DNA from: Thermoplasmatales archaeon | GTDB taxonomy: Archaea > Thermoplasmatota > E2 > DHVEG-1 | Length of the DNA stretch: 64,000 nucleotides | Direction of reading: 5' to 3' | Assembly: GCA_020350825.1 (NCBI GenBank) | Contig: CP070724.1 | Span: forward strand, 2,012,848-2,076,847 | Shown here: positions 8,977 to 62,012 of the stretch, piece by piece | Layout: each line of letters begins with the position of its first letter | Numbering within the stretch: position 1 is the first letter of the stretch | Made by a program: the position numbers and the translations under genes | Notes under the pieces: generated by a model | What the model was told of the DNA's origin: nothing | Seen by the model: only the letters and a program-made list of their open reading frames with translations | Database searches by the model: none

Positions 8977-9501
8977 AAATTTACTAAATGTTATCGTTGT
9001 TTAAATGTTGCTTTAAAATTTTCTAACAATATATTAAAATTACAGCCTACCACCAAATTAATCTCTATTTTCCACTATTTCTTTACTTTTAAGAATTTTT
9101 TTACTTTTTTTAAGGACTCATCATACCATTTTTTCCTTTATTATTTACTTCATAATTCCATATAGTAAAAGCAGTATGCCAATCATCAATATCATTTTCA
9201 GTTCTCCATTTTAACCATATTTATCCACGATGTATTTCCATACTTCTCCCATACGTATTTCTATTTTTTCTGTATATTGCATTTTTATTTTCACCCCATC
9301 TTTTAATACTATTCTTTTAATGATACAATAACGAACATAGTTGCTAATTGTGATTCTGAAATCTTCTCCTTATTTAAAACTTTTACTCCCCCCACTTTTT
9401 CTAAATTACATATATGAATTCATATGATTCAAGTGATTATACGTTGAAAAGTACCATTCCTAAGAAATATACACAAATTGATTATAACGTTAAATATTAG
9501 G

Positions 9502-9924
9502 TTATTTAAAATTATATGCACCCATAAGAGTATTTGTTGGTATATGTCTAAGTGCCAAATTACCGTTACAGTTAACCACTACATCTCCTTCTTTAATAGG
9601 TCCAGATGGGAGTGTTGCATTTCCCGAACATATTTCATTATCTTCCCAGTTCAAATTAGAATTATATATTTTTTGAACAGTTAGGGTTCTAGTGTTTTTA
9701 TCCATTGAAAATAAAACTGGAAGTTTTTCCTTTCCTTTTATATTAGTACGTTCAAAAATAAAAATTGAAAGGAAGAGACAAAATAATCCTGTTATAAAAA
9801 GTTGAATATGATAAATCCAAATGGCAGTAAACCAACAAATTATCCAAGCATATCCAAATAATTTCTCTATTGACTGTATCTTTTTTTGTATCGATTTTAG
9901 TTTTTCAATTACATCTAAGTCCAA
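9502..9924 (-). CDS. hypothetical membrane protein
   Basis: 140 aa with two predicted TM helices (WIICWFTAIWIY.., GLFCLFLSIFIF). No motif. Confidence 0.3.
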   Translation of the reverse strand: MDLDVIEKLKSIQKKIQSIEKLFGYAWIICWFTAIWIYHIQLFITGLFCLFLSIFIFERTNIKGKEKLPVLFSMDKNTRTLTVQKIYNSNLNWEDNEICSGNATLPSGPIKEGDVVVNCNGNLALRHIPTNTLMGAYNFK

Positions 9925-10391
9925 GAGCGCACATCCATCCTAATTTACCAATATCCCAATGCTTGAAATAATTTACTATGTTATAAACTGTCTTCTCCCA
10001 CAAATGGATTTACATTTTAATGTAGTAACAAATCTACGCAATATGATATTGTATAATAAATAAGAACTTGTAAAAATCTCCAAAAATGTTAATATGTCAT
10101 AGAAGATATTTGATATCTAATGTTTGAAAATAGAAGTGAACGGCAATTAATTATAATATATTTAATTATTGCATTAGTAATTACCTTGTTATTAGCCGTT
10201 TTTCATATATATCAAGGGCTCCACCCTTACTACATAATTATTGCGGCAAATATTGAGTTTTTTTGTATATTTTATGTTTTGTATTTTCCATTAAAAGTAA
10301 AGAAGGAACAAAAGTAGTCTTTTTATTTAAATAATCACTTGAGTTTTATTTTAAACTTACTTTGCAAATCGGTACAGATATGATATTGTAA

Positions 10392-10450
10392 AAGGGGTCA
10401 GAAGGGAGGAAAATGATGGAAAAAAATCATTTTCAAAAGTTTTGACCCCT
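10392..10450. other. 8-bp inverted repeat (aggggtca ... tgacccct) enclosing a ~43-nt loop; candidate small structured RNA
   Basis: Direct reading of the inverted repeat in a gene-free region. Confidence 0.3.
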
Positions 10451-10545
10451 CTAGTGGGTGTTATAGTCTTTTTGTTAATAAATATAATCTTATTGTCAAT
10501 TTTTCAAAAAACATTATAAAAAATGTTTTGAAGGATGGGAGCATA

Positions 10546-10606
10546 TATTCGATAAACGACAGGAAAAGTCCTGTAACTCCCTTCCTTCTTGCCTACATAT
10601 TATTTA
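10546..10606. ncRNA. candidate structured small RNA: 12-bp outer stem with a nested 6-bp inner stem
   Basis: Outer stem gaaggatgggag / ctcccttccttc (11 of 12 complementary). Inner stem acagga / tcctgt with a 4-nt loop. No ORF. Strand undetermined. Confidence 0.3.
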
Positions 10607-11195
10607 TATTTCTGGAGGTATTTAAATAATTTCATAATTATTTACGACAATTGTCGAAAAATAATGCAATTTTATATGTTCTAAGGTCTATGAATTGCAT
10701 TATTGCTAAAAATGAAAAAAATGCCTTAGAGGGTTTTTTGTACTACTATTAATCTAATTTCAACAGGGTTGTTACATCAAGTAATGTTAATCTCCTTGAG
10801 GCCTGAAAAACCAATCAAATGTAAGCCTTTTCTTTTTACGTTTTAACCTTTCTGCATCTTTTTGTGCGCTTATCATCCCATCTTCTTTTTTCTGGTTTCT
10901 ATTTGATTTACTGATTTTATTTTGTGTGTCATGGAATTTTCCTTGTGCTTGTTTCCATTTTCTATTGAACATATTATTAGTTTGACTTTCCTCCAATATT
11001 ATTGCTACATCTAAAGATGGGAGAGTTTATAAATGCTATCCTTTATCACATTTTCTGCTAACTAAAACTTATTGGCAGTAATTATTTTATCGATTATATT
11101 ATTATATTTGAATATTCAAAAAGCGGGAACAAAAAATTAATAAATAATAATCCATTTCGTCTTATAAATATTTAGAAGAGGATGAGGATGCTATT

Positions 11196-11384
11196 ATGCA
11201 GGAAGTTTTGTATAATATTGAGATAAAGAGAGATGAGAACAAATATCTAGGTAAAATATATTCAGAGATCGATGGGGTAAGGGAATTTAAAAATGAACAC
11301 ATAGATAGATTACTTAATGATATGACTGTTGACATGCAGCTAACTCTTGATGAGTTTTCTAATCACTCTATAATATTTGAATAA
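11196..11384 (+). CDS. small HicB-like / UPF0150-family protein (possible orphan antitoxin)
   Basis: 62 aa. YNIEIKRDENKYLGKIYSEIDGVREF matches the HicB N-terminal strand-turn pattern. A purine-rich stretch (gaggatgaggatg) precedes the start. Confidence 0.3.
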   Translation: MQEVLYNIEIKRDENKYLGKIYSEIDGVREFKNEHIDRLLNDMTVDMQLTLDEFSNHSIIFE

Positions 11385-11549
11385 AATCTAGAAAGAATAA
11401 AAAAAGAGTATTAATGAATTGATTTCATTTTACCGTTGCTTTAATCTTATGGTTAACTATCAAAAAGCATATCTTATTTGCTTAGTGTTTAAATGATGGA
11501 TTCAAGTTTTGATTTCATAATGTTTGATGATCTCATTTTTTTACGTTTC

Positions 11550-13284: not shown

Positions 13285-13444
13285 AAAAGCTATTTAGGTA
13301 AGGAGAACTTTCCTTAAAACTCTCCTTTAAGAACAGTTCAAAAATGCGTCTTTGATGATCGAGATTAAAAAAATTCTTACTAACCATAAGTGGAGAAGGA
13401 TATCTTTAATCCTTCTCTATTTTCTTTATTTTTTTAATAATAAT
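13285..13444. repeat. ~160-bp direct repeat, copy A (partner at 15860-16020)
   Basis: About 88% identical to copy B by eye. Contains hairpin gagaagga-N9-tccttctc (13393-13417) followed by a T-rich run. Confidence 0.9.
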
Positions 13445-13661
13445 CCTCCGACCCATAACAAATCTTCTTGAGCTGTTACAAAGTGGTTACATTCCCCTTT
13501 TCGCTGTAAATTTCGTCGAAAAATTATACTTTTTTCTAAAACCTTTCTTCTCTCTATTTTGAACTTACTCGGATACTATTAATAAAAATTTTAGCTAATC
13601 TAATATCTTCTCTTCTATCAGCTTTATCAAATTCCAATATTCAGGATGATATTTTTAAGTT

Positions 13662-14753
13662 CTAACTTCCGAAAAAGATTTGGGCGATCTCATAAAGATC
13701 CATATCAACCGTTTTTAATCTTGAAACAGACTTTTCAAGTTCAACTGGGACAATTTTATTTCCCTGTAATGCAACCATTTTCCCATAATTATCCTCATTT
13801 ATTAAGTCAACAGCCGCAACACCAAATCGTGTTGCTAAAACCCGATCATAAGCAGAAGGTGTACCCCCTCTTTGTACATGACCAAGAATAGTAACCCTTG
13901 TATCAACTCCCAAACGTTTCTCGATTTCATTTGCTAGAAAATGTCCAATTCCTCCAAGTTTTACATGGCCAAATTCATCCTTCTCCTCAGTTTGAGTAAT
14001 CAGGGTACCTCCTTCCCCAATAAAACTAGTATCCCCTTCTACACCAGTTTGAGAAACCGATAAGTCCTTTTTTATGGGTTGTGCACCCTCAGCTACTACA
14101 ACTATACTGAATTTTTTACCACGATCATAACGTGCCTTCAGATGATTACAAACAAATTCAATATCAAATTGTTCCTCAGGAATCAATATCTCATCAGCTC
14201 CACCAGCAATACCTGCCACTGTCGCAATCCATCCTGCATGCCTCCCCATTACCTCCACGACTATTACTCTATGATGAGACTCAGCAGTTGTATGAAGCCT
14301 ATCTATAGCCTCAGTAACGATAGAAACCGCGGTATCAAATCCAAATGTATAATCAGTGCCAAAGAGATCATTATCAATAGTTTTTGGAATACCTACCACG
14401 GGAATACCAATCTTATGTAATTTTAAAGCGACACCAAGAGTATCCTCACCGCCGATAGCTGCAATAGCATCAATCCCAAATCTTTTAGTATTCTCAGTAA
14501 GCTTTTGCACATCCTCCTCATATTTAAACGGATTTGTACGCGATGTCCCAATGATAGTTCCACCCTTTGGAAGGATGCCAGAGACAGTGTAATCTGTAAG
14601 TGGTTCCACATCGCCTTCTATTAGACCCTTCCATCCATTTCTAATACCAATGATCTCCCAGCCATATTTAATAGATTTTTTTACAACAGCTCGGATAACA
14701 GCATTCAAACCTGGGCAGTCTCCTCCACCAGTTAAAACTCCAATTTTTTTCAT
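13662..14753 (-). CDS. pfkA: 6-phosphofructokinase, PFK-A family (bacterial type)
   Basis: MKKIGVLTGGGDCPGLNAVIRAVV ... GGDGT-like ... PKTIDNDL motifs. ATG at 14753 overlaps the fba stop as ATGA. The track start at 14774 is a spurious upstream extension. Confidence 0.9.
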   Translation of the reverse strand: MKKIGVLTGGGDCPGLNAVIRAVVKKSIKYGWEIIGIRNGWKGLIEGDVEPLTDYTVSGILPKGGTIIGTSRTNPFKYEEDVQKLTENTKRFGIDAIAAIGGEDTLGVALKLHKIGIPVVGIPKTIDNDLFGTDYTFGFDTAVSIVTEAIDRLHTTAESHHRVIVVEVMGRHAGWIATVAGIAGGADEILIPEEQFDIEFVCNHLKARYDRGKKFSIVVVAEGAQPIKKDLSVSQTGVEGDTSFIGEGGTLITQTEEKDEFGHVKLGGIGHFLANEIEKRLGVDTRVTILGHVQRGGTPSAYDRVLATRFGVAAVDLINEDNYGKMVALQGNKIVPVELEKSVSRLKTVDMDLYEIAQIFFGS

Positions 14754-15694
14754 AAAACTAATTCCTCCTCCCAAGCCTTATCAGCTGAGCCAAGTATATC
14801 AATCTTTTCTTTGACTACATCATATATAGCATTTCGTGCAGGACCTAATATCTTCCTTGGATCAAATTGCTCTGGTGAATTAGCAAATACTTCTCTTATT
14901 GCAGTAGTGAATGCCAGTCTCAAATCAGTATCAATATTTATCTTATTGATTCCCAGTTTAATCACTTTTTTTATGTGTTCAGTGGGAACACCTTTTGCAC
15001 CTGGTATTTTTGCACCATATTTTGCTGCCTTTTTAAGGATATTTTCAGGAACACTTGAAGCACCGTGTAGCACTAATGGGATTTTTGTCAAATTTTTTGT
15101 TTCATCCAATCTCTCAAAATCTAGTTCTGCTTCTCCTTTGAATTTAAAAGCACCATGAGACGTTCCTATGGCAGGGGCCAATGAATCAATTTCTGTTTCT
15201 TCTACGAATAATTTAGCATCCTGAGGGTTTACTAAAATCGCATCTCTTTCTAATACAGAGACATTATCCTCGATGCCTTGTAATCTACCAAGTTCGGCTT
15301 CCACAGAAACATTATGGGTATGAGCTGTTTTTACTACTTTTTTTGTTTCTTCAATATTCTCATCTAATGATAAGTGTGAAGCATCAATCATCAATGATGT
15401 GTAACCGTATTTTATGCATTTTTGTATAACTTCGAAATTCTTACCATGATCTAAATGAAGAGCTATGGGTACACTTGTTATATTTGCCGCTGTTTTTACC
15501 ATTGATACAAGATAATTTATACCGGCGTATTTAATTGCACTTTCACTCGTAGCGATTATTACTGGAGAATTCTTTTCTTCAGCCGCTCTAATAATACCTT
15601 GAAAAATTTCCATATTATTGATGTTAAACGCCCCAACAGCATATCCTCCAACATTTGCTGCATCTAAAATTTCCTTACCTGTAACTAAACTCAT
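14750..15694 (-). CDS. fba: fructose-bisphosphate aldolase, class II (bacterial type)
   Basis: GYAVGAFN...HLDHG...class II Zn-aldolase signatures. 314 aa. Confidence 0.9.
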   Translation of the reverse strand: MSLVTGKEILDAANVGGYAVGAFNINNMEIFQGIIRAAEEKNSPVIIATSESAIKYAGINYLVSMVKTAANITSVPIALHLDHGKNFEVIQKCIKYGYTSLMIDASHLSLDENIEETKKVVKTAHTHNVSVEAELGRLQGIEDNVSVLERDAILVNPQDAKLFVEETEIDSLAPAIGTSHGAFKFKGEAELDFERLDETKNLTKIPLVLHGASSVPENILKKAAKYGAKIPGAKGVPTEHIKKVIKLGINKINIDTDLRLAFTTAIREVFANSPEQFDPRKILGPARNAIYDVVKEKIDILGSADKAWEEELVL

Positions 15695-15859
15695 ATTTCC
15701 ATCTCCTCAAAGATTCATACTAAAATCCATATTAATAGCTTGCTATAAAAACAATAAAATGAAAAAACAGATGGAAGATGAAATGAAATTATTGTATGCA
15801 GTTTACCCTACTTTTTAATGGATCGGATTTGGAAAAATGAAAAGGCTATAATTAGAGTA

Positions 15860-16020
15860 AAAAGCTATTTAGGTAAGGAGAACTTTCCTTAAAACTCTCC
15901 TTTAAGAACAGTTTAAAAATGCGTCCTTGATGATAGAGAATAAAAAAATTCTTACTAACTATAAATGGAGAATGAAATCTTCAATCATTCTCTATTTTCT
16001 TTATTTTTTTAATAATAATC
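15860..16020. repeat. ~160-bp direct repeat, copy B (partner at 13285-13444)
   Basis: Same orientation as copy A. Hairpin gagaatga-N9-tcattctc (15968-15992) differs from copy A by a compensatory pair change, G-C to T-A at stem position 6. Confidence 0.9.
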
Positions 16021-16271
16021 TTATGGATACATAACAACATTGATATTCAAAAAATATAGGGGAAAAATTTAGTGTTTTCTAACTTAGCAGAGAAATTTAT
16101 TGATTTGAGCTTTTATTTCGTTTTTAAATTTTCAATTTGTAATTATTGAAATTGAATCAGAATAGCACGCACTGGTTTTGTTACAGATGTTTCAAATAAA
16201 AATTCATCATAACATTTAAATCGATTTTGGATATATCTTATTTGTATATCGCATATATGGGGAGGTAAATT

Positions 16272-17186
16272 ATGCTGCAGTCTTTCTTATTACCACCTGT
16301 TAAAGCAGTTCGAATAGCTTGGGCACGCACTGGTGATTTTTCAGAAAACTCACATTCTCGACGTTATGCAGATCAGGCTAAGACAGAACTGAAAGATATT
16401 AAAAGGCAAGCAGAAGGAGATAAAAAAGAAAGGAGATATGTAAGTGATGCTATAGCAATCATAGAAGCTAGCTTGCGCAACCTTGACACAATCTACAAAG
16501 GGCGTGAACTCAATTTTTATGAGAATGAAAAATTAAGATTATCTCATCTAGAATCTGTAAAACAAAGCCTGGAATTTGGAAACAAAGCAAAAGATTTTTT
16601 AAAATCTCTGCCCACTATGACAATTGGTTCTGCAAGCGGTATTACTGTAGCTCAACTTCTTGGAGCTACCGTTATGCAATTGTGGGCTGTAGGTTTGTTG
16701 TTTGCCGCTGTTGGTTATTTAGTCAATTGGATTATTGTAGATAGAATGCGTATAGAAAAACAATGGAACTTTATTCTTCAGGATTATGAAAGAGGGCTTT
16801 ACTATGTCCAATATCTTAACAGAGTCACTGAAGCATTAGCATCTTTGTATAATAGTATAGATCAAATCCATAAAACTGTTTTTAATCAAAAATACCCAAT
16901 AGATACAGATGTAATTAAGATTATCAATGAATTGTTAAGGGGAATTCGACCAACATATTGTGATTATGTTAAGGAACATTTAAAGACCGAGGTAATTGTA
17001 GATAAAAAAGGTAAAGAAAAAAAGGGATGGTTAATAATGAATGGAAAGGAAAAGAAAGGGAGGAAAAAAAAGAAAGCAATGTGGGAGCAGTGGTCGGTGT
17101 GTGAATCTGGGATCGAAGAAGCTGTAGAAAAATGCCGGTTTTGGGAGGGGAAAAAACCCAAGGAAATTGAAGTAAAAAAAACTTAG
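16272..17186 (+). CDS. hypothetical membrane protein (central TM hairpin, Lys-rich C-terminal tail); upstream partner of the EEP nuclease
   Basis: 304 aa. Hydrophobic segment TMTIGSASGITVAQLLGATVMQLWAVGLLFAAVGYLVNWIIV. No recognisable domain. 10-nt gap to the next gene. Confidence 0.5.
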   Translation: MLQSFLLPPVKAVRIAWARTGDFSENSHSRRYADQAKTELKDIKRQAEGDKKERRYVSDAIAIIEASLRNLDTIYKGRELNFYENEKLRLSHLESVKQSLEFGNKAKDFLKSLPTMTIGSASGITVAQLLGATVMQLWAVGLLFAAVGYLVNWIIVDRMRIEKQWNFILQDYERGLYYVQYLNRVTEALASLYNSIDQIHKTVFNQKYPIDTDVIKIINELLRGIRPTYCDYVKEHLKTEVIVDKKGKEKKGWLIMNGKEKKGRKKKKAMWEQWSVCESGIEEAVEKCRFWEGKKPKEIEVKKT

Positions 17187-17196
17187 GAGAGAGAAT

Positions 17197-18174
17197 ATGA
17201 GACCTATACCAGATTTTTTTGAACCACCACCTAGTCATGTAGTAAATGACTATTATAATTTAGTGGTTGCTTTGAATAACACAATACCTGAAAAAACAAG
17301 CAATAATCTCTTGATTGCAACCTGGAATTTAAAGAAATTTAGCTCATTAACTAAGAAATGGTTATCTGATTCCAATGACAGTCCAAAAAGGGATTTTACT
17401 GCTATACAAACTATTACCGAAATTGTTTCTAGATTTGATGTTGTTGCTATCCAAGAAGTTATGGGAAATCTGCGTGCTCTTCGTTACTTAATTAATATGC
17501 TTGGTAAAGATTGGGCGTTCTTAATGACTGATATTACCCTTGGGGTTGCAGGGGGTGCTGAAAGAATGGCATTTGTTTTTAATCGTACTAGAGTTAAACT
17601 CTCAGGTTTGGCATGTGAACTGGTGATTCCTCCAGACTGGTCTGAAAATATAACAAATCAATATCCCCAACAATTTGCGCGTACACCTTATGCTGTAAGT
17701 TTTAAACGAGAATCGGCAACATTCATTCTTGTCACCTTACACATTGATTATGGGGACCAATCAATAGATAGGATTCCTGAATTAAAAGATATTGCAAAAT
17801 GGATGTACGATTGGGCTGAACGTGTAACCAGCTGGCATCATAATCTTATCACCCTAGGAGATTTTAATATCGATAGAGAAGGCGATGAATTATGGGGCGC
17901 TTTCACCTCAACAGGGTTAAAGGTTCCAAAATGCTTAGAAAATCAAAAAAGATCAATTTTTGCAACTGCTGAAGATACAAAGAAAGAAAAATATTATGAC
18001 CAAATCGCATGGTTTCAAGATAGTGCGAAAAATAACCTCATAGAAATGAAAATCAATGATGGGGATAATTTTGATTTTCTCCCTTATGTATATCAACATC
18101 TTTCATTGAAAAAAAATTCGATCCAGCACAGAATATCGGATCACTATCCTCTTTGGTGTGAATTTATAATTTAA
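17197..18174 (+). CDS. endonuclease/exonuclease/phosphatase (EEP, DNase I-like) family nuclease
   Basis: EEP motifs LIATWNL, VVAIQEV, LGDFN, SDHYP. No signal peptide. Confidence 0.75.
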   Translation: MRPIPDFFEPPPSHVVNDYYNLVVALNNTIPEKTSNNLLIATWNLKKFSSLTKKWLSDSNDSPKRDFTAIQTITEIVSRFDVVAIQEVMGNLRALRYLINMLGKDWAFLMTDITLGVAGGAERMAFVFNRTRVKLSGLACELVIPPDWSENITNQYPQQFARTPYAVSFKRESATFILVTLHIDYGDQSIDRIPELKDIAKWMYDWAERVTSWHHNLITLGDFNIDREGDELWGAFTSTGLKVPKCLENQKRSIFATAEDTKKEKYYDQIAWFQDSAKNNLIEMKINDGDNFDFLPYVYQHLSLKKNSIQHRISDHYPLWCEFII

Positions 18175-18564
18175 TAGAGCATATTGATAGTACCGTGTAA
18201 AATTACCTGTATTTCCAATATGTTTCGCTAGATACTCTCAGATAAATGGTGTGTTCAGATGAAAAATTTTTAAATTTCTCTCCTGTCACACAGGATCAGT
18301 TTTAATGACCTCCTATAGTATTATACAATGAGGGGGATCCCTTATTATGATCTTTGGTTCTTGATTGTTGCCAAGTATGGACTACATACCCAGCTATAAA
18401 CCCATCAACTGTCTAATTATTGGAAAAATCCGTGGATGATTCTGATACTTATATTGTTGCTCGGTTTAAACTAATTTTTTGAATGTAACAATCATTAACA
18501 AGGTTATTTGGCAAAACAAGCATTTGCTTGGATTATTATGTGAAGCCGCATTTGAATTGCAATT

Positions 18565-18609
18565 ATGATTCATAAAAGAATAAAAAGAAGGAATAACCAT
18601 TCTATTCCT
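18565..18609 (-). terminator. hairpin plus T-tract terminator candidate downstream of the 18632-19069 gene
   Basis: aggaata-N7-tattcct (18589-18609), followed on the minus strand by ttctttttattcttttatg. Confidence 0.45.
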
Positions 18610-18631
18610 CCTTTCATTATGATTTAATTAT

Positions 18632-19069
18632 TTATGCCCAGAAATAAGCTGATTCTCCTACATTGTTATCTTCTCTTATCTCAGTAAGCTCATGGTAAAA
18701 ATCTGTTACTGCAACACACTTATATCGTTCTGGTGGATCATTAGTCAAATAAAAAAGTTTAGACACAGGAACCGTCCATCCTCTAGGTATACCAATAGGA
18801 TGCGTGTAATCCTTTAATATTAACCAAGACTGCCCATCGTCTAGAAAAAGCAATGTATTAAACCCAGGATCAGCACCATGATCACCAATGTTTTTTACCC
18901 ATGCCGTCACAAGATGCCAATTTTGCACAGGACCAGGTACAACCGTTACACTTGTAATTGTCAGATCTGGCATTGGAGAATAATCTCCGCTACTTACAAT
19001 AGGTACAGTAGAAAACAGTAAAATAGCTACCATCAGCCCCAATACTAAAAATCCTAATTTCCTCTTCAT
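18632..19069 (-). CDS. secreted protein with CARDB-like domain
   Basis: Signal peptide MKRKLGFLVLGLMVAILLF. DLTITSVTVVPGP...VKNIGD resembles the CARDB domain. Confidence 0.5.
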   Translation of the reverse strand: MKRKLGFLVLGLMVAILLFSTVPIVSSGDYSPMPDLTITSVTVVPGPVQNWHLVTAWVKNIGDHGADPGFNTLLFLDDGQSWLILKDYTHPIGIPRGWTVPVSKLFYLTNDPPERYKCVAVTDFYHELTEIREDNNVGESAYFWA

Positions 19070-19096
19070 TGTATTTCAACCTCCGATATTATTTTG

Positions 19097-19146
19097 ACCT
19101 CCCGAGAATAAGGTTCCTTTAGGCATATTTTTCCGTCCCGGTCGTT
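19097..19146. promoter_or_regulatory. conserved ~50-bp upstream element, copy 1 (partner at 20018-20068); likely shared promoter or leader
   Basis: acctcccgagaataaggttcctttaggcatatttttccgtcccggtcgtt, about 28 nt upstream of the ATG at 19069. The minus-strand sense contains aaaaatatgcc (TATA-like). Confidence 0.4.
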
Positions 19147-19267
19147 ATAATACCATAAAAAACAAGAGTGATAAAGAGATAGTACACTTTCCCAAATTGA
19201 TATCACTACCATAATGATCTACCCTAAATTTTTTATAAATATTTTTTAATACAACAGTCGTCACACT

Positions 19268-19966
19268 TTAGTTGTCCCAAGCCCAAGCGTCGAGAGTATA
19301 AGAACCAACGCAATTGTCTCCAAAATCATAGCAGTAAACCTTTATCTTGTAATCCCCATCGAAAATACTAGAATTAATCTTGTCACTTACATGGTCTGTT
19401 AAGGTACCCCATCGAATGCTCTTTTTTGCAAAACTCCAGGACCACCAGATACGTTCCCACAGATAAAGATCACAATCCCCACTATGTGTGGATAATGTAA
19501 TATCACACTCATCTACATCATAGAAATAAAAGTAGTGACTTTGTCCTTTCGTGAGGTTACCAGAAGTATGGATATGATAAGTCTCCAAACTGTTTCCCTT
19601 TAAGCCATCCAAACCTATTGCGATGTGCAAGGATGACAATACATCATCCAAAGAAGGAAAATCTTTCTTTGATGTAGCATGGAGATCCCTTCCGTGAAAC
19701 AACGTTCGTCTTACTTGAGCCTGCTTTTGATATAGTGGCTCCAAGATCTTTTTTTGTTCTTCCCTGTTTTTAGGTGCGAACACCTCTACCTGCAACTCAG
19801 GTTGTTTTCGCTGCTGGAAAGCAACGACTAACTGTTCTGGTCCTGCGACTGTAACTTTAAACTGTTTCCGTTTTTTTTCATCACTAAGCGAAAATGGTAG
19901 CGTGATTAAATCGTAAGCAGCATATTCTTCTGTAGGTTTCACTTTCATAAAATCAAGTGTCTTCAT
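19268..19966 (-). CDS. protein with C-terminal pre-peptidase C-terminal (PPC)-like domain
   Basis: The C-terminal segment GDCDLYL...DYKIKVYCYDFGDNCVGSYTL resembles the PPC / P-domain. ATG at 19966 (MKTLDF...) is preferred over the TTG at 19996 used by the track. Confidence 0.45.
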   Translation of the reverse strand: MKTLDFMKVKPTEEYAAYDLITLPFSLSDEKKRKQFKVTVAGPEQLVVAFQQRKQPELQVEVFAPKNREEQKKILEPLYQKQAQVRRTLFHGRDLHATSKKDFPSLDDVLSSLHIAIGLDGLKGNSLETYHIHTSGNLTKGQSHYFYFYDVDECDITLSTHSGDCDLYLWERIWWSWSFAKKSIRWGTLTDHVSDKINSSIFDGDYKIKVYCYDFGDNCVGSYTLDAWAWDN

Positions 19967-20017
19967 ATTAACCCGCCTTAAAACTCGATTATCCAATCTT
20001 TCTCATCTCCATTCTAT

Positions 20018-20068
20018 ACCTCCCGGGAATAAGGTTCCTTTAGGCATCATGTTTCCGTCCCGGTCGTT
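20018..20068. promoter_or_regulatory. conserved ~50-bp upstream element, copy 2
   Basis: acctcccgggaataaggttcctttaggcatcatgtttccgtcccggtcgtt, upstream of the 19268-19966 gene. Confidence 0.4.
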
Positions 20069-20317
20069 TAAACAACTAATATAATCATCGTGATTAAGAG
20101 AAAATATGCTTTTCCAAATTGACATCATTTCCTTACTGACCTCCCCGGATTAAATTGTGTCACTTGTACACAATCAATTGATATTTGTAATATTATGGAA
20201 AATGTATCAGCTCCATTTTCCAACAAATTATGCAACACATTATGGGTATTTATACTTTTCCCATTTTCCCATTAACCCCATAAAACTAAATATTAGTGTA
20301 CACATTATAATTTGTAG

Positions 20318-20515
20318 ATGGAAAAATTACTTGGTAAACCCCGACAAATAGACAGTAGAAACAGGGTAACACTTCCTCCTGAAGTTTTGAAACTCTTAAA
20401 CTTAAAACCAAAAGATGAAGTATTCTTTAAGGTTAAGGGGGGGAAAATAATAATGGGTAAAGCCCTGATAAAATACGAGCTTATTGATGAGATCATAGGT
20501 ATTAAAAAAGAATAG
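20318..20515 (+). CDS. AbrB/SpoVT/MazE-family swapped-hairpin DNA-binding protein (antitoxin-like), orphan
   Basis: IDSRNRVTLPPEVLKLLNLKPKDEVFFKVKGGKIIM matches the SpoVT-AbrB domain consensus. Confidence 0.6.
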   Translation: MEKLLGKPRQIDSRNRVTLPPEVLKLLNLKPKDEVFFKVKGGKIIMGKALIKYELIDEIIGIKKE

Positions 20516-20517
20516 GT

Positions 20518-20766
20518 TTACATACCTAGTTCTTCTTTTATTTGTTGTGCTCTCCGGTTTTTTACATACCAGAGAGTTGTTTTCATATGTTCGATAACAT
20601 CATCAAGGCTTTTATCTTGATCTTTGAACTCTTGCAATAAAATAATTTCGTACTCAATATATTTTTCTATTACGTCTTTTCTATGTTTCTCAAGTTGAGG
20701 ATCAGTTTCCTTAAAATCAATAATACTATACGATTCTTTTTCCTTCATTATATATCCCTCCCTCAT
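20518..20766 (-). CDS. hypothetical small acidic protein
   Basis: 82-aa ORF convergent with the AbrB-like gene. No motif. Confidence 0.3.
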   Translation of the reverse strand: MREGYIMKEKESYSIIDFKETDPQLEKHRKDVIEKYIEYEIILLQEFKDQDKSLDDVIEHMKTTLWYVKNRRAQQIKEELGM

Positions 20767-21125
20767 GTCAATTTGACAAATATTAACAGGGATTAATAAT
20801 ACTCTTATTATTATTTAAAGCCATATTTACTAATTTCCCTACAAAAAACCAAAATAAAGTAACATTTTTTACGTTTGTAGGATTTTAAACAACAGCAAAT
20901 ATATTCTTAATAACAGATATATATTGGACAGTGGTTATACACTTTTAGTATGAATATGCATCCATTTCTTTATAAATCCTTTTTTTCACTTACTCAATTT
21001 AATAGTAAAACTATGTCTCAGCTATTTGAACGAATGAAGTGTAGTGGAAATGAAGGGTAGTGGTTTCATTTTATCTACTGGGCTTACAATGTATTCAAAA
21101 ATGATGTGAGGTTGAAACATATAAG

Positions 21126-22292
21126 CTATTTACTTTTATTTTTTTTAGAACTCTTTTTTAATTTTTTATCGACCTGGGATTTAATATCGTATACTCCTTC
21201 AAACCACTTATCTTCCATTTGCTCTTCAATCTCTCCAGTTAACTCATTTATCTTGTACTTCATATGATCTTTTCCTTTAAACCACTCATATTCGTCCTTT
21301 TTATGGTTGGATATGACCTTCTCTGTTTCTTCCTCCACTACATATTTTATTTCCTTCTTTTTTTCTGATCTTTGAATTCTTATCTCTTCTACTCGAGGTT
21401 CTTTTTCCGACAATGGCAATTTTTCTTTAGCTTTTGCGTCTGAAGGTGTCTTTATTTGATTAGTCTTGTTAGTAATATTTTCTTTTTTATTTTTAATGCT
21501 TTTCTCAGGAGAATCTGCTTTAATTTCAATTGTCGGTTTTGGTAATTCTTTTCTAAATCTTACAAATAATATCGCAAACATGAGGACAAGTACCGCTGCG
21601 ATAATTGGCGTTAAACTATCCATGAATATACTTTCCGGCACATTTTCTGCACGTATTGTAGTTGAGCCTACAAAATATCCTCCCTTAAAGGCATTAATAT
21701 TGATCTCGACATCATCAGTAACGTCTGGTGCTGTAAGATATGCTATGCCATTTGAACCGGTGGTATCTGAATCGCCTTCAGATCCATCTATATCCAAATA
21801 TACAGTGGAGCCCTCCACCCTATTGCTATTCTGATCCCAAACAATCACACAAAAGCTCTCTTTCTCCTTAACTGTTCCACGATCTGTTGTTACCGATAAT
21901 TCTCCCTTTAAAACCTTAATTTCTTGTTCAGCAGAAGTGTATCCATCTTTTAATGCAGTTATAACAAACTCAGGATATTCTTCAAAATCTGGTGTTTCTA
22001 TGGTTATCCATGGTGATTCCTCACTAGTTATACACGGGACTTCCCAAGGTACACTTACAGTTACATTATAGACATATCCATATTGATTTTCACAGCCTAT
22101 TGCTATGTCATATTTTTTACCCTCTAAAAATATATTTTCTTCTATTGGAAGACATGTTTCTGAATTGTGGATGACAATAAAAAGCGTATTTTCTTCTTGG
22201 GCTAAGGCATTTAATGAAAATAGAACACTAGTTAATAGTAATATTAAAATTGAAAACGCAAAACAAATTTGAAATTTTTGATGCTTTTCTAT
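21126..22292 (-). CDS. secreted, single-pass membrane-anchored protein with a K/E-rich cytoplasmic tail; start codon uncertain
   Basis: The open frame continues upstream of the track start (a GTG) through signal-peptide-like KHQKFQICFAFSILILLLTSVLFSLNALA-QEE. There is no in-frame ATG/GTG/TTG before the stop at 22311-22313. An SD-like aggtggtgg lies just upstream of ATA 22292. TM helix PIIAAVLVLMFAILFV. Confidence 0.45.
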   Translation of the reverse strand: MEKHQKFQICFAFSILILLLTSVLFSLNALAQEENTLFIVIHNSETCLPIEENIFLEGKKYDIAIGCENQYGYVYNVTVSVPWEVPCITSEESPWITIETPDFEEYPEFVITALKDGYTSAEQEIKVLKGELSVTTDRGTVKEKESFCVIVWDQNSNRVEGSTVYLDIDGSEGDSDTTGSNGIAYLTAPDVTDDVEININAFKGGYFVGSTTIRAENVPESIFMDSLTPIIAAVLVLMFAILFVRFRKELPKPTIEIKADSPEKSIKNKKENITNKTNQIKTPSDAKAKEKLPLSEKEPRVEEIRIQRSEKKKEIKYVVEEETEKVISNHKKDEYEWFKGKDHMKYKINELTGEIEEQMEDKWFEGVYDIKSQVDKKLKKSSKKNKSK

Positions 22293-22518: not shown

Positions 22519-23577
22519 TTATGTTTCAGCAAGACGTTGTTTTAATTCTGTTATAATATCTACAGGTGTTGGATCAATATTTCTTAAAAAGGCAAGATAA
22601 CAACTAAGAAAATCTCCTAAACACATTATATACATTATTTTTGCCAGTCTACTTCTTCCTTTTGGATATATTTCAATAACGTTTGCAACAGAATCTTCAA
22701 AAAGACTTATCATAAAGTTAAGACGGGTTGATATGTTCAGAGATTCATTGTCCTTGTCTCTAAACAAAATACAAGAAAAATTTTTTGATACATCCGGATT
22801 TGAAGACCAGCCAACTATATCATTATGATTACTTTCAGACACGACATCTTCCCTTGCAATGGCTTTACTATTTTCATTGAATTGCTGGCGCCATCTTGTT
22901 GCAATGGGATAATACACTCCCCAGCCATATATTTGAGGTATGGTATTGTATATCTTTTTTGCAATCTGTTTTGAAAGATTATTTTCTTTGACAACTGATT
23001 TTTTATTATTATCTATAAGATCTTGTATTACGGCAATGGTTTCCTCGATATCTGATTCAATATTATTTTTCAAAAGACCAGTTCTTTTAAGAATCCATAT
23101 CAATACAAATAATGGATATGCTATTGCAGCTCTCGGCTGAAAGCCAGAGGGTATCTTTATGTGAGCGATTCCTCTTTTTTCCGACATTTCTTGTAATTTT
23201 CCACCAGATGATATACTCACTATTTTACATTTTTTCTGACTTGCAATTTTAAATGAGCTCAATGTCTCTTCAGTATTCCCAGAGTAGCTAAAAAATATTG
23301 TCAGTGTATCCTTTTTTGCCCATTTTGGCAGATCATATTCTCTGTTAATATATATTGGGACATCTATTTTATCTCTAAATAAACTAGCTACAATATCTCC
23401 AGAAATTCCTGAGGCTCCCATACCAGTTATTATTACATTGTCAATCTTGATGAAATCATCTATCTTAGCATTCTTTGCTATTTCAATGGCTTCTTTAATC
23501 TGTCTGGGAAATTGAGCAATTGTTTCCAACATATTTGATTTATCTATTTCTGAAATTTTTTCAAGATCATCTAACAT
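22519..23577 (-). CDS. bifunctional phosphoglucose/phosphomannose isomerase (archaeal SIS-domain PGI/PMI)
   Basis: SIS domain with GMGASGISGDI...FSYSGNTEET. Length and organisation match the archaeal PGI/PMI family. Confidence 0.6.
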   Translation of the reverse strand: MLDDLEKISEIDKSNMLETIAQFPRQIKEAIEIAKNAKIDDFIKIDNVIITGMGASGISGDIVASLFRDKIDVPIYINREYDLPKWAKKDTLTIFFSYSGNTEETLSSFKIASQKKCKIVSISSGGKLQEMSEKRGIAHIKIPSGFQPRAAIAYPLFVLIWILKRTGLLKNNIESDIEETIAVIQDLIDNNKKSVVKENNLSKQIAKKIYNTIPQIYGWGVYYPIATRWRQQFNENSKAIAREDVVSESNHNDIVGWSSNPDVSKNFSCILFRDKDNESLNISTRLNFMISLFEDSVANVIEIYPKGRSRLAKIMYIMCLGDFLSCYLAFLRNIDPTPVDIITELKQRLAET

Positions 23578-27289: not shown

Positions 27290-29719
27290 TTACATTATTA
27301 CAAAGGGGCCTAGTATAAAGGCAGTTGCTGTTTGTTCTGCTTTCTCCGCAGTTACAATAATTTTAACGTTGCCAAGACCAAATATTAAACCCGATTTCAC
27401 TGTTTTTTCTCCTCCTGCAGGAATATCGAGATTGTTACCAGATTTATTACCACCAAGTAATATGAAATCTCCACTGAGTTTGATATTCCACTGTACACCA
27501 GTTGCCTCAGCAGTTCCAGTGTTTTTGATAATTGCGTTTACTTTGAGTAATCCATTAGTGATGTCGCCTATTTCAATTATAGGCAACTTAATGTTTACCA
27601 TTAATGGTTCTGACCAGTTGCTTGACCCACCATAAATATCCCTAGCTTTTACTCGTATCTCGTAATCTCCTGGCTCAGTCCATGAATGAGATGCTTCACA
27701 AGTTGCTCCAGAGTTATATGGCCCTATCCATCCGCTATGTGTCCCATCACCCCAATCCCACATATAGGATACTTGATCTCCATCAGGATCTGTTGTATCG
27801 GTAGTATATGTATATTGTTCTCCTGGCTTTTCACTTGGTTTTCTAGGTGTTTCTGGCGGGTCATTTACACCTGTCTCATAAAAACTAAGACTTGGGTCAC
27901 CAAATAAGTTTGTTTCATAGTAAACCCAACGTATACATGATCGACCGATGATATGGAGGTTATCCTCTTTGGAATCATGATTGGCTTTGCCAATTACGGG
28001 AATATTTTCGCCAAATACTGCATCCCAAAACTGCCTGTGAAATCGTTGTGAATCACCATCCGTGCTATATGACCAGAACCAACCATATCGCGCATTCATG
28101 ATTACTGCAAAAGCACCATGATCTGTTTTTACAGTGAAATATTCAGCAATACAATCATCGTAATCAAAGCCGCCTGCCATACAGCCCTGTGAGTATACAA
28201 AGCAGAGTTTATTATTTGAAAGTGTATTAACGTCGTAATTTTCCATTTTCATATCGTATTCATAATATGCATGTCCCAGGTGATTTATTATATGGACTCC
28301 ATTATTTATTACGGTCATGATTTCTGATGTTGGCCAATAGTTACCAGGCCAATCACGATCGTATAATGTTGTGATATTATATTCATTAGATGGTATACCT
28401 ATAGTAGTATATCCATCATCAGTTGAACCGTCAATTAGTTGGTCCATATAATTTCCACCCCAAGTAGCAATACCATAATCACCCATATATTCTCCAGCGA
28501 AACAAGCATTAGACAAATACTCCAACTCAGGATCCTGATTGATATAAGTAACAGTTTTACTCACAAAATTATTCACATCATTCATATTATCAACACAAGC
28601 ACGACCAACATAAACTTCAGCTATTAAATCTACATCACCGCCACCTTCTCCATCAGTTGGTTCTCCCCATTTGTTGTCACCGTCATAGTTGTATGGTCCA
28701 TCTAAACATGCATAATAAAGATCAGAGGGCATATATTCCTCGTAAGGGGTAGTATTTTCATCCAATCCGTATACCCATAACCATGGATCAGGGATGATAT
28801 TATCATCACCTCCAATGAGTACATAGTCGATTTCCCAATTGATATATGCATCTCTTATGTAGTTACGGATGTCTTCAAGATTACTGCTGCCAATGTCAGC
28901 TAATGTTTTGATTACTGTATCAATGCCTGTTGCACCATGGGCTTGTTTTAATGGTTCAAAACCATCTTTTAATGAATCTGTCGTGATTATAAGGAGATCG
29001 TGGTCTTCATTTCTGGATGTGGGTTTTGCACTCTTTTCACGATATCTTTCAGAAATCTCAGGATTGTCAACTTTCTTCATTACCTCAATTTTATCCTTTT
29101 CCAATCCCCTAAACAAATCTACTGAATTATCATCAGATATTGTCTCAATTGAGACTTCCAGGTTTCTATAATAAAATAGCCCATCTGTTACGGGATTGTA
29201 TTGGATTGGATGTAGTAAAAGAACGAGTAGGTTGTATCCTCTAAACTTATAGGTTCCAACTTCAGTGTACAGGGTTCCAGGATAAAAGGCATTAGAATTA
29301 TAAATCGTTGCATCTGGAGTCGGTACTGAAGGGTATATCGCTTGTGAGATTGGAATCGGTTTACTTGTTGGTTCGATAGTAAATTCTGTTTCAAGGGCAA
29401 TTTTCTCACCGGATTTGATATATATGGCGCTTACCTTTGATTTTGGAGGCATCAAAACATATGCTCCCTTTGACGGTATCATGGGTTCTCCAGTGTTTCC
29501 TGCAGGTGAACAATCAGCAAGTAGCACCCTATTGTAAACAGTTCCCTCAATATCAATGGTTTCCATTACTGGCCTTTGAAATGAATAGGTTGTATGTATA
29601 GTATCATCTGTTGAAAAACTACTGGCTGGTGCGATGATAGATAGAGGCGCTAACAATAAAATCATTGTAATAAAATAAGGTTTTATATTACGAGTTATTG
29701 ATTTAATATTTTTATTCAT
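27290..29719 (-). CDS. secreted peptidase family C25 (gingipain-like) with C-terminal PKD domain
   Basis: Signal peptide. C25-like His/Cys contexts NHLGHAYYEY and VYSQGCMAGGFD. PKD motif DPDGDQVSYMWDWGDGT. Confidence 0.7.
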   Translation of the reverse strand: MNKNIKSITRNIKPYFITMILLLAPLSIIAPASSFSTDDTIHTTYSFQRPVMETIDIEGTVYNRVLLADCSPAGNTGEPMIPSKGAYVLMPPKSKVSAIYIKSGEKIALETEFTIEPTSKPIPISQAIYPSVPTPDATIYNSNAFYPGTLYTEVGTYKFRGYNLLVLLLHPIQYNPVTDGLFYYRNLEVSIETISDDNSVDLFRGLEKDKIEVMKKVDNPEISERYREKSAKPTSRNEDHDLLIITTDSLKDGFEPLKQAHGATGIDTVIKTLADIGSSNLEDIRNYIRDAYINWEIDYVLIGGDDNIIPDPWLWVYGLDENTTPYEEYMPSDLYYACLDGPYNYDGDNKWGEPTDGEGGGDVDLIAEVYVGRACVDNMNDVNNFVSKTVTYINQDPELEYLSNACFAGEYMGDYGIATWGGNYMDQLIDGSTDDGYTTIGIPSNEYNITTLYDRDWPGNYWPTSEIMTVINNGVHIINHLGHAYYEYDMKMENYDVNTLSNNKLCFVYSQGCMAGGFDYDDCIAEYFTVKTDHGAFAVIMNARYGWFWSYSTDGDSQRFHRQFWDAVFGENIPVIGKANHDSKEDNLHIIGRSCIRWVYYETNLFGDPSLSFYETGVNDPPETPRKPSEKPGEQYTYTTDTTDPDGDQVSYMWDWGDGTHSGWIGPYNSGATCEASHSWTEPGDYEIRVKARDIYGGSSNWSEPLMVNIKLPIIEIGDITNGLLKVNAIIKNTGTAEATGVQWNIKLSGDFILLGGNKSGNNLDIPAGGEKTVKSGLIFGLGNVKIIVTAEKAEQTATAFILGPFVIM

Positions 29720-47833: not shown

Positions 47834-51540
<3,707 letters not shown>

Positions 51541-60140: not shown

Positions 60141-62012
60141 TTAGCTATAACCACCAATCATGAGACTTGGATCGCCTAATAGTAAGAATTCTTCAATTGT
60201 GAAATAATCTTCCCAAACGTTATTTATGTAATCATTTTGTGCATAGGTCAGCATTTCTCCTGCTGTTACTCCCTCTTCATATGCCTTGAAGAATTGAACA
60301 TTTAAATATCCTGCTCCAGCATAAACTCCATCATTGTCTACCCATGTATAGGCAGTTCGAGTAGCACCTATCGTTGCTATTGCACCTCCGTTTTCTTTCT
60401 TTAGAAACCACCAAGCAAAACAAGGATAGAAAACCGAAGGGTCATCTTCTATTTTTGTAAAGATGAGCAGGAATTTTACAAAATTAGGAAAGTACTCTTC
60501 TAGATCGGCAATGGTAAAATCGAGTTTTGTGGTAAGGCAAGCGTCAAAGAAAACAACAGGTAGCTTGTGGTTGTTTTTTAGGCCCATTATAAATGGCGAA
60601 TAATAAATAATCATCCTCTTTTTTGAGATAGCATTTGGACGATAGGTGCCCCACCCATGCTCAAATCCATGACCTGAATAGCTAACAAAACCTGCACCTT
60701 TTGTAATTGCTATGTTAAAGGTAATAGCGTTTAAATTACGTTTAGATGCCCATAATTTAACATGTGTAAAGTCAGGTAGTTGTTCTGCAACTTTTTTATT
60801 TGTTATTTCTCCCTCAAAAACAAATGGTGGCGCTCCATTAGCTACAGGGAACGTATCTCCGCCAGCAAGTATTATTTTTTTGAACCAGATTTGATCATAG
60901 GTTTCTTTTTCATAATTTATTATTTTGTTGACAACAATATCTAACTCGTTTTCATTAGTACAAGATATACGACCAATGTGTACATCAGCATATAAATCAA
61001 CACCGTCGATATTGATCATTTGAGGTGGAAATCCGCCCTCAAAAGATACCTCACCAAAAAGGTTATTCTCGTTTGTATCCCAGCTACAGAAACTACCGTT
61101 TTCATCATATATATCAGCATAATAGAGATCCGAGAGGATGTCAGGCTCCCACATTGAAGCATAGGTCGTTCTTATGGGTAGTTTTTTAATGTCCCCTACT
61201 AAGAGTACGTAGTGAGTGTCCCATTCTTCAACAGCATATTTAACAAAATATTTTATTTTTTCAGCCTCATCCCTTCCAGGAAAGTTTGCATAGATGTCTT
61301 CCAATATCACAAGGTTTGTCTCTAAACTATAACTATTCTTATGGTGAATTAAGGGTTCAAGGTTATCGGAAAATTCAAAGGGAGCTATGATAACAAGATC
61401 GTACATATCAGAAATTGTTATTAATTCTTGTTCTTCATACTTAATGCTTACCTCAACTTGCCTAATATATTGAATGGAATTTTCTAAAGGAATATATCTA
61501 GCAGGATAAATGTGTAATGAAAGAAATAGTACATGATCATTATTCTTATTAAGACCAGCTCCAGTAGTATATCTACACCACTCACCGGGGTATGGTTCAG
61601 AACTGGTATACACATCTTGATTAAACGTTGTCGCCGTGGTGACTATTGTATCATCTGTTTTTTGTTTAGATGGCACTGGTTTAACTTGTTTTTCAACGTA
61701 CATAGTTTTTACTTTTGAAGGCGTAACTTTTACATCTGTTACTTTTGTTCCGAGTGGAAATTCTAATGTTTTTGAAAAAACCGGCATCATTGGTGCTTCA
61801 TCATAAGTCATAAAAGAATTTATCTCTTTAACGTATAATTCTATAAATTCCACATTATCTATAATCACTGGCTCCGAGAAATCTTGAATAAATTCTATGG
61901 TTTCTGATTTAGAAGCAAAAACACCCTTATTTAATGTACTAGTAACACCTGGAGCAATTCCCATTCCAATAAACAGTATAATTATTCCTATAGCAAATTT
62001 TCTTTTATCCAT
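60141..62012 (-). CDS. secreted peptidase family C25 (gingipain-like)
   Basis: Signal anchor MDKRKFAIGIIILFIGMGIAPGV. His context VSYSGHGFEHGW and Cys context VVFFDACLTTKLD. Confidence 0.65.
   Translation of the reverse strand: MDKRKFAIGIIILFIGMGIAPGVTSTLNKGVFASKSETIEFIQDFSEPVIIDNVEFIELYVKEINSFMTYDEAPMMPVFSKTLEFPLGTKVTDVKVTPSKVKTMYVEKQVKPVPSKQKTDDTIVTTATTFNQDVYTSSEPYPGEWCRYTTGAGLNKNNDHVLFLSLHIYPARYIPLENSIQYIRQVEVSIKYEEQELITISDMYDLVIIAPFEFSDNLEPLIHHKNSYSLETNLVILEDIYANFPGRDEAEKIKYFVKYAVEEWDTHYVLLVGDIKKLPIRTTYASMWEPDILSDLYYADIYDENGSFCSWDTNENNLFGEVSFEGGFPPQMINIDGVDLYADVHIGRISCTNENELDIVVNKIINYEKETYDQIWFKKIILAGGDTFPVANGAPPFVFEGEITNKKVAEQLPDFTHVKLWASKRNLNAITFNIAITKGAGFVSYSGHGFEHGWGTYRPNAISKKRMIIYYSPFIMGLKNNHKLPVVFFDACLTTKLDFTIADLEEYFPNFVKFLLIFTKIEDDPSVFYPCFAWWFLKKENGGAIATIGATRTAYTWVDNDGVYAGAGYLNVQFFKAYEEGVTAGEMLTYAQNDYINNVWEDYFTIEEFLLLGDPSLMIGGYS

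Follow-up and report, generated by a model that had tools for sequence, protein, structure and literature searches.

In a 64,000-nucleotide (nt) stretch of contig CP070724.1 from a Thermoplasmatales archaeon (assembly GCA_020350825.1), here called the window, a gene for a class II fructose-1,6-bisphosphate aldolase (14750-15694, minus strand) runs into a gene for a PFK-A-family 6-phosphofructokinase (PFK; 13662-14753, minus strand). We propose, with a probability of about 0.7, that these genes form a two-gene mosaic operon for a reversible upper Embden-Meyerhof pathway, in which a native PFK was combined with an aldolase from an aldolase-PFK cassette, and that the operon is carried in an inserted island. 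An earlier note on this DNA had described a horizontally acquired module of probable bacterial origin. The operon does lie in 7.8 kb of inserted DNA, but the PFK appears to be native, so that the pair was probably not acquired together from bacteria.

Profile searches identified both open reading frames (ORFs) as the adjacent class II aldolase and PFK-A-family kinase that the earlier note had named, and both enzyme families are indeed overwhelmingly bacterial. The 314-aa aldolase matched PF01116 with E=2.7e-105 (352.3 bits against a cut-off of 25.5) and passed the TIGR01859 equivalog model (396.9 bits, cut-off 343), and it failed the models for tagatose-bisphosphate aldolases of the GatY/KbaY type (NF009374, 344.4 against 383 bits; TIGR01858, 320.1 against 443.55 bits). 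The metal-binding histidine motifs HLDHG, GTSHG and LHGAS were kept when the protein was aligned to the Helicobacter pylori structure 3c4u, and profile and structure matches together assigned it to class IIb, the Helicobacter/Thermus-like type. The kinase comprises 363 aa from its ATG; the ORF call reaches further upstream, to a TTG at 14774. It matched PF00365 over profile positions 1-277 of 277 (E=5.8e-117, 390.4 bits, cut-off 30.9) and passed the trusted cut-off of the TIGR02483 'PFK_mixed' model (473.8 bits against 430.55).

The kinase scored below the TIGR02482 PFKA_ATP equivalog (345.6 bits against 371.35) and carries the motif GGED, not GGDG. Alignment to human PFKL placed GGED opposite GGDG and PKTIDND opposite (V)GSIDND, giving Asp104, Val108 and Lys124 in E. 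coli numbering (GGEDTLGV and IPKTIDND), and a motif census found GG[DEN]DT together with PKTIDND in 120 of the 120 best homologs. The previous description of a classical PFK-A (GGDG/PKTIDND) therefore holds for PKTIDND and not for GGDG, where the enzyme is of the pyrophosphate (PPi) type; the 'GGDG' of that description probably refers to an N-terminal GGGD. From these residues PPi dependence is a well-grounded prediction, against which two points must be set. The TIGR02483 family includes, by its model description, an ATP-dependent exception. Moreover, a 2025 review of the superfamily (PMC12203962), which assigns GGDG to ATP enzymes and GGDD to PPi enzymes and gives as further signatures the lysine in P(G/K)TIDXD and a glycine at the third position in ATP enzymes only, cautions that the lysine alone is not diagnostic.

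The relatives of the kinase lie within the archaeal order. The kinase shows 73-88% identity to more than 120 database clusters, with 88, 87, 81 and 78% at the top, and all named matches are from Thermoplasmatales or Thermoplasmata (including SG8-52) except P0070, a cassette PFK labelled Halobacteriota; bacterial PFKs from Omnitrophota, Ignavibacteriales, Gaiellaceae and other Actinomycetota reach 55-63% at best among the matches listed. A solo PFK between flaJ and convergent archaellin genes was present in all five distinct relatives checked (P0002, 88%; P0004, 81%; P0005, 78%; P0023 from SG8-52, 77%; P0045 from the complete genome CP070712, 76%), with no aldolase near any of the five within the available sequence. 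The DNA match to the closest relative (L087, encoding P0002; 86%) is confined to the ORF, starting 1 nt ahead of the ATG and ending 13 nt past the stop. A 19-residue insertion is common to the window PFK and the archaellum-linked PFKs and is missing from cassette PFKs, and the window protein has the archaellum-linked state at six of seven diagnostic sites, the first informative one being residue 68. Neighbour-joining with 300 bootstraps grouped the window PFK with P0002 and P0003 at 100%, with P0004-6 at 93% and with other Thermoplasmatota at 77%, while the whole clade including the cassette PFKs received 99%. These placements agree with Sheridan et al. 2022 (PMC9287336), who found pfk in most Thermoprofundales, closer to bacterial homologs, and dated its gain from bacteria before the last common ancestor of that order. 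By its sequence, then, the window PFK is most simply the order's own gene, of ancient bacterial origin and vertically inherited since, an origin that is already published. A scan of a genome collection for PFK returned one Thermoplasmatota locus among the matches listed and gives no basis for counting species with PFK.

The aldolase has a separate set of relatives. Its nearest non-self match in a search of 5.8 billion proteins is 76% identical, with none at 76-100%; where the PFK ladder descends through 88, 87, 81 and 78% and that of the neighbouring CBS-domain protein through 91, 88, 88 and 81%, the aldolase ladder begins at 76% and falls from there. All four close aldolase relatives that were read in context (P0122, P0124, P0127 and P0145) stand directly before a PFK gene in an aldolase-PFK cassette: P0127 in a metagenome-assembled genome (MAG) labelled Halobacteriota with V4R, DUF2551 and PGF-CTERM neighbours, P0124 with V4R, DUF2551 and CofC, and P0145 in a Chloroflexota MAG with ComEA and ComEC adjoining. 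A fifth close aldolase, P0129, is tied less directly to a cassette, in that its longest contig has the same length (23,018 nt) as that of the cassette-clade PFK P0082. A neighbour-joining tree of the aldolases placed the window aldolase with the cassette aldolases in a clade with 87% support. Phylogenies of both proteins, which the earlier note had proposed as a check on bacterial origin, thus put the PFK inside an archaeal clade and the aldolase with cassettes from Halobacteriota and one Chloroflexota. Named aldolase matches below 68% identity are bacterial (Deltaproteobacteria, Spirochaetes, Thermodesulfobacteriota). No class II aldolase was found within 6 kb of PFK in any of the approximately 73 bacterial loci listed in the genome scan, and adjacent aldolase-PFK pairs occurred in that comparison only in the window, a Halobacteriota locus fetched separately (L005) and a Bathyarchaeia locus (L013), with the Chloroflexota pair fetched later; viral contigs yielded no aldolase relative. 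The two window proteins are about equally far from their cassette versions, at 76% for the aldolase and ~79% for the PFK. Taken together, these comparisons suggest that the aldolase is the patchy, foreign part of the operon, with an affinity to archaeal cassettes.

The junction between the two genes (14750-14773, minus strand) carries the trace of their joining. The TGA that ends the aldolase (14752-14750) and the ATG that starts the kinase (14753-14751) overlap in an ATGA, which bears out the translational coupling noted earlier; 11-19 nt ahead of the kinase start, at 14764-14772, stands a Shine-Dalgarno-like run, GGGAGGAGG. Halobacteriota cassettes have ...GGCAAGGCT TGA at the end of the aldolase, then 19 nt, then the ATG of the PFK. 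The corresponding window sequence is ...GATAAGGCT TGG GAGGAGGAATTAGTTTT ATG, the same layout with the stop replaced by tryptophan: the former stop is the TGG at 14771-14773, and the frame continues for seven codons beyond it, through the former 17-nt spacer and into the ATGA overlap at 14750-14753. Set side by side, the cassette junctions of L005, L090, L092 and L094 all have a stop, 11-19 nt and an ATG, and the sequence upstream of the archaellum-linked PFKs is unrelated to the window junction. The window junction therefore appears homologous to the cassette junction, and because its layout is cassette-like while the archaellum-linked upstream sequence is unrelated, the aldolase and spacer would be of cassette descent and the PFK ORF native. 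This arrangement is not an assembly artefact, since an independent Logan assembly (L172, from SRR14739665) is 100% identical over 15889-14598, ending 30 nt inside the repeat upstream of the aldolase. Read from the sequence, a GAGGAG Shine-Dalgarno-like run (15703-15708, minus strand) lies 8 nt upstream of the aldolase ATG, and a TATA-like element, TTTTTATAG (~15742-15750, minus strand), lies ~57 nt upstream as a putative promoter.

The comparison of GC and codon usage suggested previously as a test of foreign origin, made here with other genes in the window, gave no foreign signal. The GC content at third codon positions (GC3) is 0.255 for the PFK (z -0.1) and 0.216 for the aldolase (z -1.3), compared to 0.258 +/- 0.032 for 43 non-island ORFs; the codon-usage distances of both genes fall within ~1 standard deviation of the window ORFs, and the higher overall GC of the PFK is due to first and second codon positions. 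The codon usage of both genes is thus native, without trace of recent bacterial origin. Because the aldolase GC3 is low compared to that of the sampled cassette lineages (0.43-0.54), the gene has probably been long resident in a low-GC genome, and its residence there in turn speaks against a bacterium, and for this lineage itself or a related archaeon of low GC, as the immediate donor of the pair.

The operon occupies one end of a strain-specific insertion of 7.8 kb (13297-21122) between two conserved neighbours, a 240-aa gene (h240; 21126-21848, minus strand) that flanks the left junction and the CBS gene. A metagenome scan with the CBS protein recovered 77 related contigs, dozens of which share the order h240, CBS, Na+/H+ exchanger (NhaP) and THUMP methyltransferase; h240 stands directly upstream of CBS in ~40 related contigs and is preceded by a phosphoglucose isomerase (PGI) gene in ten. 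In the closest relative, L095 (~90-93% DNA identity), ~95 nt separate h240 from CBS and the island site is empty. An empty site in relatives together with direct repeats at both junctions identifies the insertion as a genomic island. The 10-mer TAAATAGCTT occurs exactly three times in the 64 kb, always at a junction and on the minus strand: at 13287-13296, just before the CBS TATA box (right junction); at 15862-15871, internally; and at 21123-21132, overlapping the TAG stop codon of h240 (left junction). It occurs once in the empty site of L095.

The flanking repeats described in the earlier note are real, and comprise 161 nt with 10 mismatches (94%) in the only two copies in the window. Copy A (13285-13445, minus strand) follows the PFK and extends to the right island junction, just before the CBS TATA box, and copy B (15860-16020, minus strand), which ends in the internal 10-mer, lies 165 nt upstream of the aldolase start. 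The mismatches are confined to the first 107 nt, leaving the 54 nt next to the junction identical, and a hairpin with a 12-bp stem lies within these 54 nt. This structure would be explained equally well by successive insertions at one target by elements with a common right end, or by Campbell-type integration of a circle bearing the 161-nt sequence. Neither terminal inverted repeats nor left ends shared by the two island segments were found. An exact 24-mer of the repeat had no match in metagenome or viral contigs, and an Rfam scan of the window returned a tRNA-Gly as its sole match, with nothing in the repeats. Two further readings of the repeat were tried and rejected: a structured RNA, for which the folding z-scores (-2.9 for copy A, -1.25 for copy B) were too weak, and a copy of native sequence left of the insertion, for which alignment was no better than shuffles beyond a 10-12 bp core.

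The mosaic operon could have arisen in four steps. The PFK would have come from bacteria ahead of the diversification of the order and been passed down vertically since, as the solo gene between flaJ and archaellin genes now seen in relatives. The aldolase, with 20-30 nt upstream and the spacer, would have come from the cassette lineage, now represented in Halobacteriota and one Chloroflexota with a distant version in Bathyarchaeia. Recombination may then have joined the two within the first ~200 nt of PFK, the likely crossover zone since that stretch is highly conserved, nearly invariant, and the first informative site is residue 68; this would have been either a homology-facilitated insertion of the foreign cassette at the native PFK or a gene conversion of the cassette PFK by the native copy, in the window lineage or in a closely related low-GC donor. 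Lastly, the pair would have come to lie at the CBS-proximal end of the 7.8-kb insertion, bounded by the 10-bp direct repeat and with the 161-nt duplication around it. Mutation of the aldolase stop from TGA to TGG would have opened the frame through the old spacer to the ATGA overlap, and so coupled translation of the kinase to that of the aldolase. In the predicted pathway, a bifunctional phosphoglucose isomerase of the PGI/PMI type (22519-23577, minus strand; PF10432, E=2.2e-48), a native neighbour outside the island and 3.4 kb beyond it, would supply fructose-6-phosphate to the pair; the PPi-dependent PFK would interconvert fructose-6-phosphate and PPi with fructose-1,6-bisphosphate and phosphate, and the metal-dependent aldolase would interconvert fructose-1,6-bisphosphate with dihydroxyacetone phosphate and glyceraldehyde-3-phosphate.

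Several points count against this account. With its GC3 of 0.216 the aldolase is completely ameliorated, and no sampled relative comes closer than 76% identity, which means that the donor has not been sampled and that the transfer may be old. The absence of an aldolase in close relatives rests on database matches from short contigs. The trees were built by neighbour-joining with p-distance-type corrections, not by maximum likelihood, and the deeper Thermoplasmatota node has no more than 77% support. The first 67 residues of the PFK hold no diagnostic sites, so that a crossover there is compatible with the data, not demonstrated. A chimeric PFK was itself considered and rejected, as a sliding window and the diagnostic sites showed no switch past residue 68, the first 67 residues being uninformative. 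Searches of the island ORFs against Pfam, PHROGs and PADLOC at relaxed thresholds found no integrase, transposase or other recombinase. Finally, the analysis covered the 64-kb window only, and relocation, duplication or import from a relative would all be possible routes for the native PFK.

We considered whether the aldolase-PFK unit (13297-15861) might instead be a small mobile cassette, inserted site-specifically at TAAATAGCTT in tandem with a first element (15872-21122) whose ~150-nt right end is the same. We regard this as unlikely, though it survives better than the other alternatives. The 10-mer stands once at each of the three junctions and nowhere else in the window, both segments share a 149-nt right end with the hairpin-bearing, identical 54 nt proximal to the junction, and the first segment contains patchily distributed genes. 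However, neither an integrase or transposase nor terminal inverted repeats were found, the two left ends are unrelated, the repeat 24-mer is absent from the metagenome and viral contigs searched, and Campbell-type homologous recombination or local duplication gives the same structure. A more specific form, that the unit is the cargo of an undescribed, recombinase-less archaeal mobile element which inserts at TAAATAGCTT through a ~150-nt hairpin-bearing end and is present here twice in tandem, is slightly more doubtful again. Support for a mobile metabolic cassette, which is possible, comes only from the geometry of the repeats; if such an element exists, operons of central metabolism would be shuttled among sediment archaea in the manner of integron cassettes.

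Vertical retention, in which the ancestor of the order had the cassette and other lineages lost the aldolase and moved their PFK to the archaellum cluster, seems improbable to us. It would account for the homology of the window and cassette junctions, the similar distances of aldolase and PFK to the cassette versions (76% and ~79%), the complete amelioration of the aldolase and the presence in the window PFK of GGED, the likely ancestral state. Against this, the window PFK is nested within the archaellum-linked clade (100/93/77%) and not basal to it, its closest relative P0002 is archaellum-linked, the insertion site is empty in ~40 related contigs including one at ~91% DNA identity, and no aldolase at 76-100% identity was present among the 5.8 billion proteins.

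Least likely, and very much so, is the joint arrival of aldolase and PFK as one module straight from a bacterium, a scenario to which the mainly bacterial distribution of both families, the nearest PFKs outside the tight clade (Omnitrophota, Ignavibacteriales and Actinomycetota, 55-63% among the matches listed), the bacterial aldolase matches below 68%, the cassette beside ComEA/ComEC in the Chloroflexota MAG and the position of the pair in inserted DNA all lend something, but which is contradicted by the 88% identity of the PFK to archaellum-linked solo PFKs and its possession of their 19-residue insertion (which the cassette PFKs of Chloroflexota and Halobacteriota, at 74-80% identity, lack), by the 0 of ~73 listed bacterial PFK loci with a class II aldolase within 6 kb, by native codon usage and GC3, and by the dating of the PFK gain before the ancestor of the order (Sheridan et al., PMC9287336). 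We therefore retain the mosaic operon as the best explanation: the locus exemplifies gene shuffling of an ordinary kind, instructive in its history, and bacteria did not newly supply a complete glycolysis module.

In gene-sense order, the island carries an 82-aa ORF, a MazE/AbrB-like ORF, a 242-aa gene, a 145-aa CARDB-like gene, an EEP-family nuclease with a 304-aa membrane protein, repeat B, the aldolase, the PFK and repeat A; two of the island proteins had no confident family match. The membrane protein (16272-17186, plus strand), for which no family match was found, is followed after 11 nt by the nuclease (17197-18174, plus strand). Homologs of the nuclease are 75, 73 and 67% identical and then reach a plateau of 56-60% over many bacterial phyla (Cyclobacteriaceae, Anaerolineae, KSB1, Deferrisomatales, Sedimentisphaerales, Hyphomonas). 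The two genes look like a widely transferred accessory or defence-like pair; PADLOC matched no defence system among the island genes. Near the left end of the island, the MazE/AbrB-like ORF of 65 aa (SpoVT fold; 20318-20515, plus strand; PF04014, E=1.4e-9) lies back to back with the 82-aa ORF (20518-20766, minus strand), and no toxin partner was recognised for it. Short ORFs at 19066-19212 and 20003-20128 (both minus strand), upstream of the 145-aa and 242-aa genes, share the motif SIW.S..SL.H...NDRDG, which suggests an internal duplication of the upstream region within the island. A second insertion (8977-11549, 27% GC) separates the Na+/H+ exchanger from the THUMP methyltransferase. It is common to L095 (86-91% DNA identity); in L104 and most others the methyltransferase follows the exchanger after ~100 nt, and the gap is 1.5-3.5 kb in three other relatives.

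The archaeal nature of the host, assumed in the earlier note, is borne out by the other genes in the window, which encode TiaS, a CTP-dependent riboflavin kinase, NOG1, ABCE1, a Pelota/eRF1-like protein and ribosomal P0/L1; the host is a low-GC Thermoplasmatota archaeon related to the SG8-52/MBG-D group. At 47834-51540 (minus strand), the window encodes LigA, an NAD-dependent DNA ligase of bacterial type (adenylation, OB, Zn, HhH and BRCT domains), and downstream of it a PolX-PHP polymerase whose gene overlaps that of LigA by 1 nt; the two may be another bacterial-type pair, for repair, in the window archaeon. Three further genes (27290-29719, 60141-62012 and 44051-46474, all minus strand) encode two gingipain-like peptidases of family C25, of which one has PKD domains, and a carboxypeptidase of family M14 with PKD and CarboxypepD_reg domains; they fit the lifestyle of extracellular protein degradation described for MBG-D archaea.

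The archaellum-linked and cassette loci have features of their own. In five related Thermoplasmatota lineages (L001, 8001-9083; L003/L004, 8001-9083; L087, 64-1155; L088, 8001-9089; L089, 168-1256) a solitary PPi-type PFK gene has flaJ (T2SSF) upstream of it and converges with four or five archaellin genes; it is odd that a glycolytic gene should be conserved within a motility operon throughout an order. The top match in the representative library, P0241 (730 aa, from a JGI metagenome), consists of two PFK halves, of which the C-terminal one is close to the window PFK; a tandem fusion and an artefact of gene calling would both explain it. The Chloroflexota cassette (L094, 8001-9982) has a true bacterial context and its PFK nests inside an otherwise archaeal clade, and the Bathyarchaeia cassette (L013, 5065-7023) is a more distant version. 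The aldolase-PFK cassette has crossed phylum and domain boundaries.

If the prediction of PPi dependence is correct, the gene annotated as pfk in Thermoprofundales would change the ATP yield calculated for glycolysis and make the step reversible. The locus provides a concrete case in which an operon appears to have formed by recombination at a conserved gene start, followed by loss of a stop codon and translational coupling. It also indicates that in an uncultured, globally abundant sediment archaeon one bacterial-type pathway step may combine two histories, those of an old, order-wide PFK and of a patchy, recently mobilised aldolase. Current views are not overturned, since glycolytic genes are well known to have passed from bacteria to archaea and the gain of PFK has been published.

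Compared to characterized enzymes, the window aldolase has its best solved-structure match in the H. pylori class IIb aldolase 3c4u (359.9 bits, full length), with the Thermus aldolase 1rv8 also matching over its full length (328 bits); unlike both, it has a 7-residue C-terminal tail produced by read-through of the former stop codon. The haloarchaeal type of class II aldolase is excluded by NF041368 (142 bits against a cut-off of 500). The kinase resembles the PFK-A 'mixed' subfamily, known from Amycolatopsis methanolica and Dictyoglomus thermophilum and, more distantly, Thermoproteus tenax, whose members are short, non-allosteric and PPi-dependent: it is of similar size, with Asp at 104, a residue other than Gly at 108 and Lys at 124, and the Amycolatopsis homolog L060 (56% identity) has the same GGEDTLGV and PKTIDND. 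Its identity to any bacterial 'mixed' member is ~55-63% among the matches listed, and it differs from these in the 19-residue insertion after residue ~228, which is common only to the Thermoplasmatota relatives. The Thermoproteales PPi-PFK model NF041103 lies far off (192 bits against a cut-off of 550). The Thermoprofundales pfk (K21071, PMC9287336) is of the same gene family and archaeal group as the window PFK, which nests in that clade; it is solo in the archaellum cluster in the relatives examined, whereas the window gene stands in an aldolase operon inside an island, and it was termed ATP-dependent through its KO name, whereas the residues point to PPi. The cassettes of the Halobacteriota MAGs (for example GCA_034190245.1), the Chloroflexota MAG (GCA_034189315.1) and the Bathyarchaeia MAG have the gene order of the window and the same stop-spacer-ATG layout. 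The window operon departs from them in that its PFK is not of the cassette type and the loss of the aldolase stop has made the genes overlap, and its host is low in GC whereas the sampled cassette hosts are mid-GC, with GC3 of 0.43-0.54.

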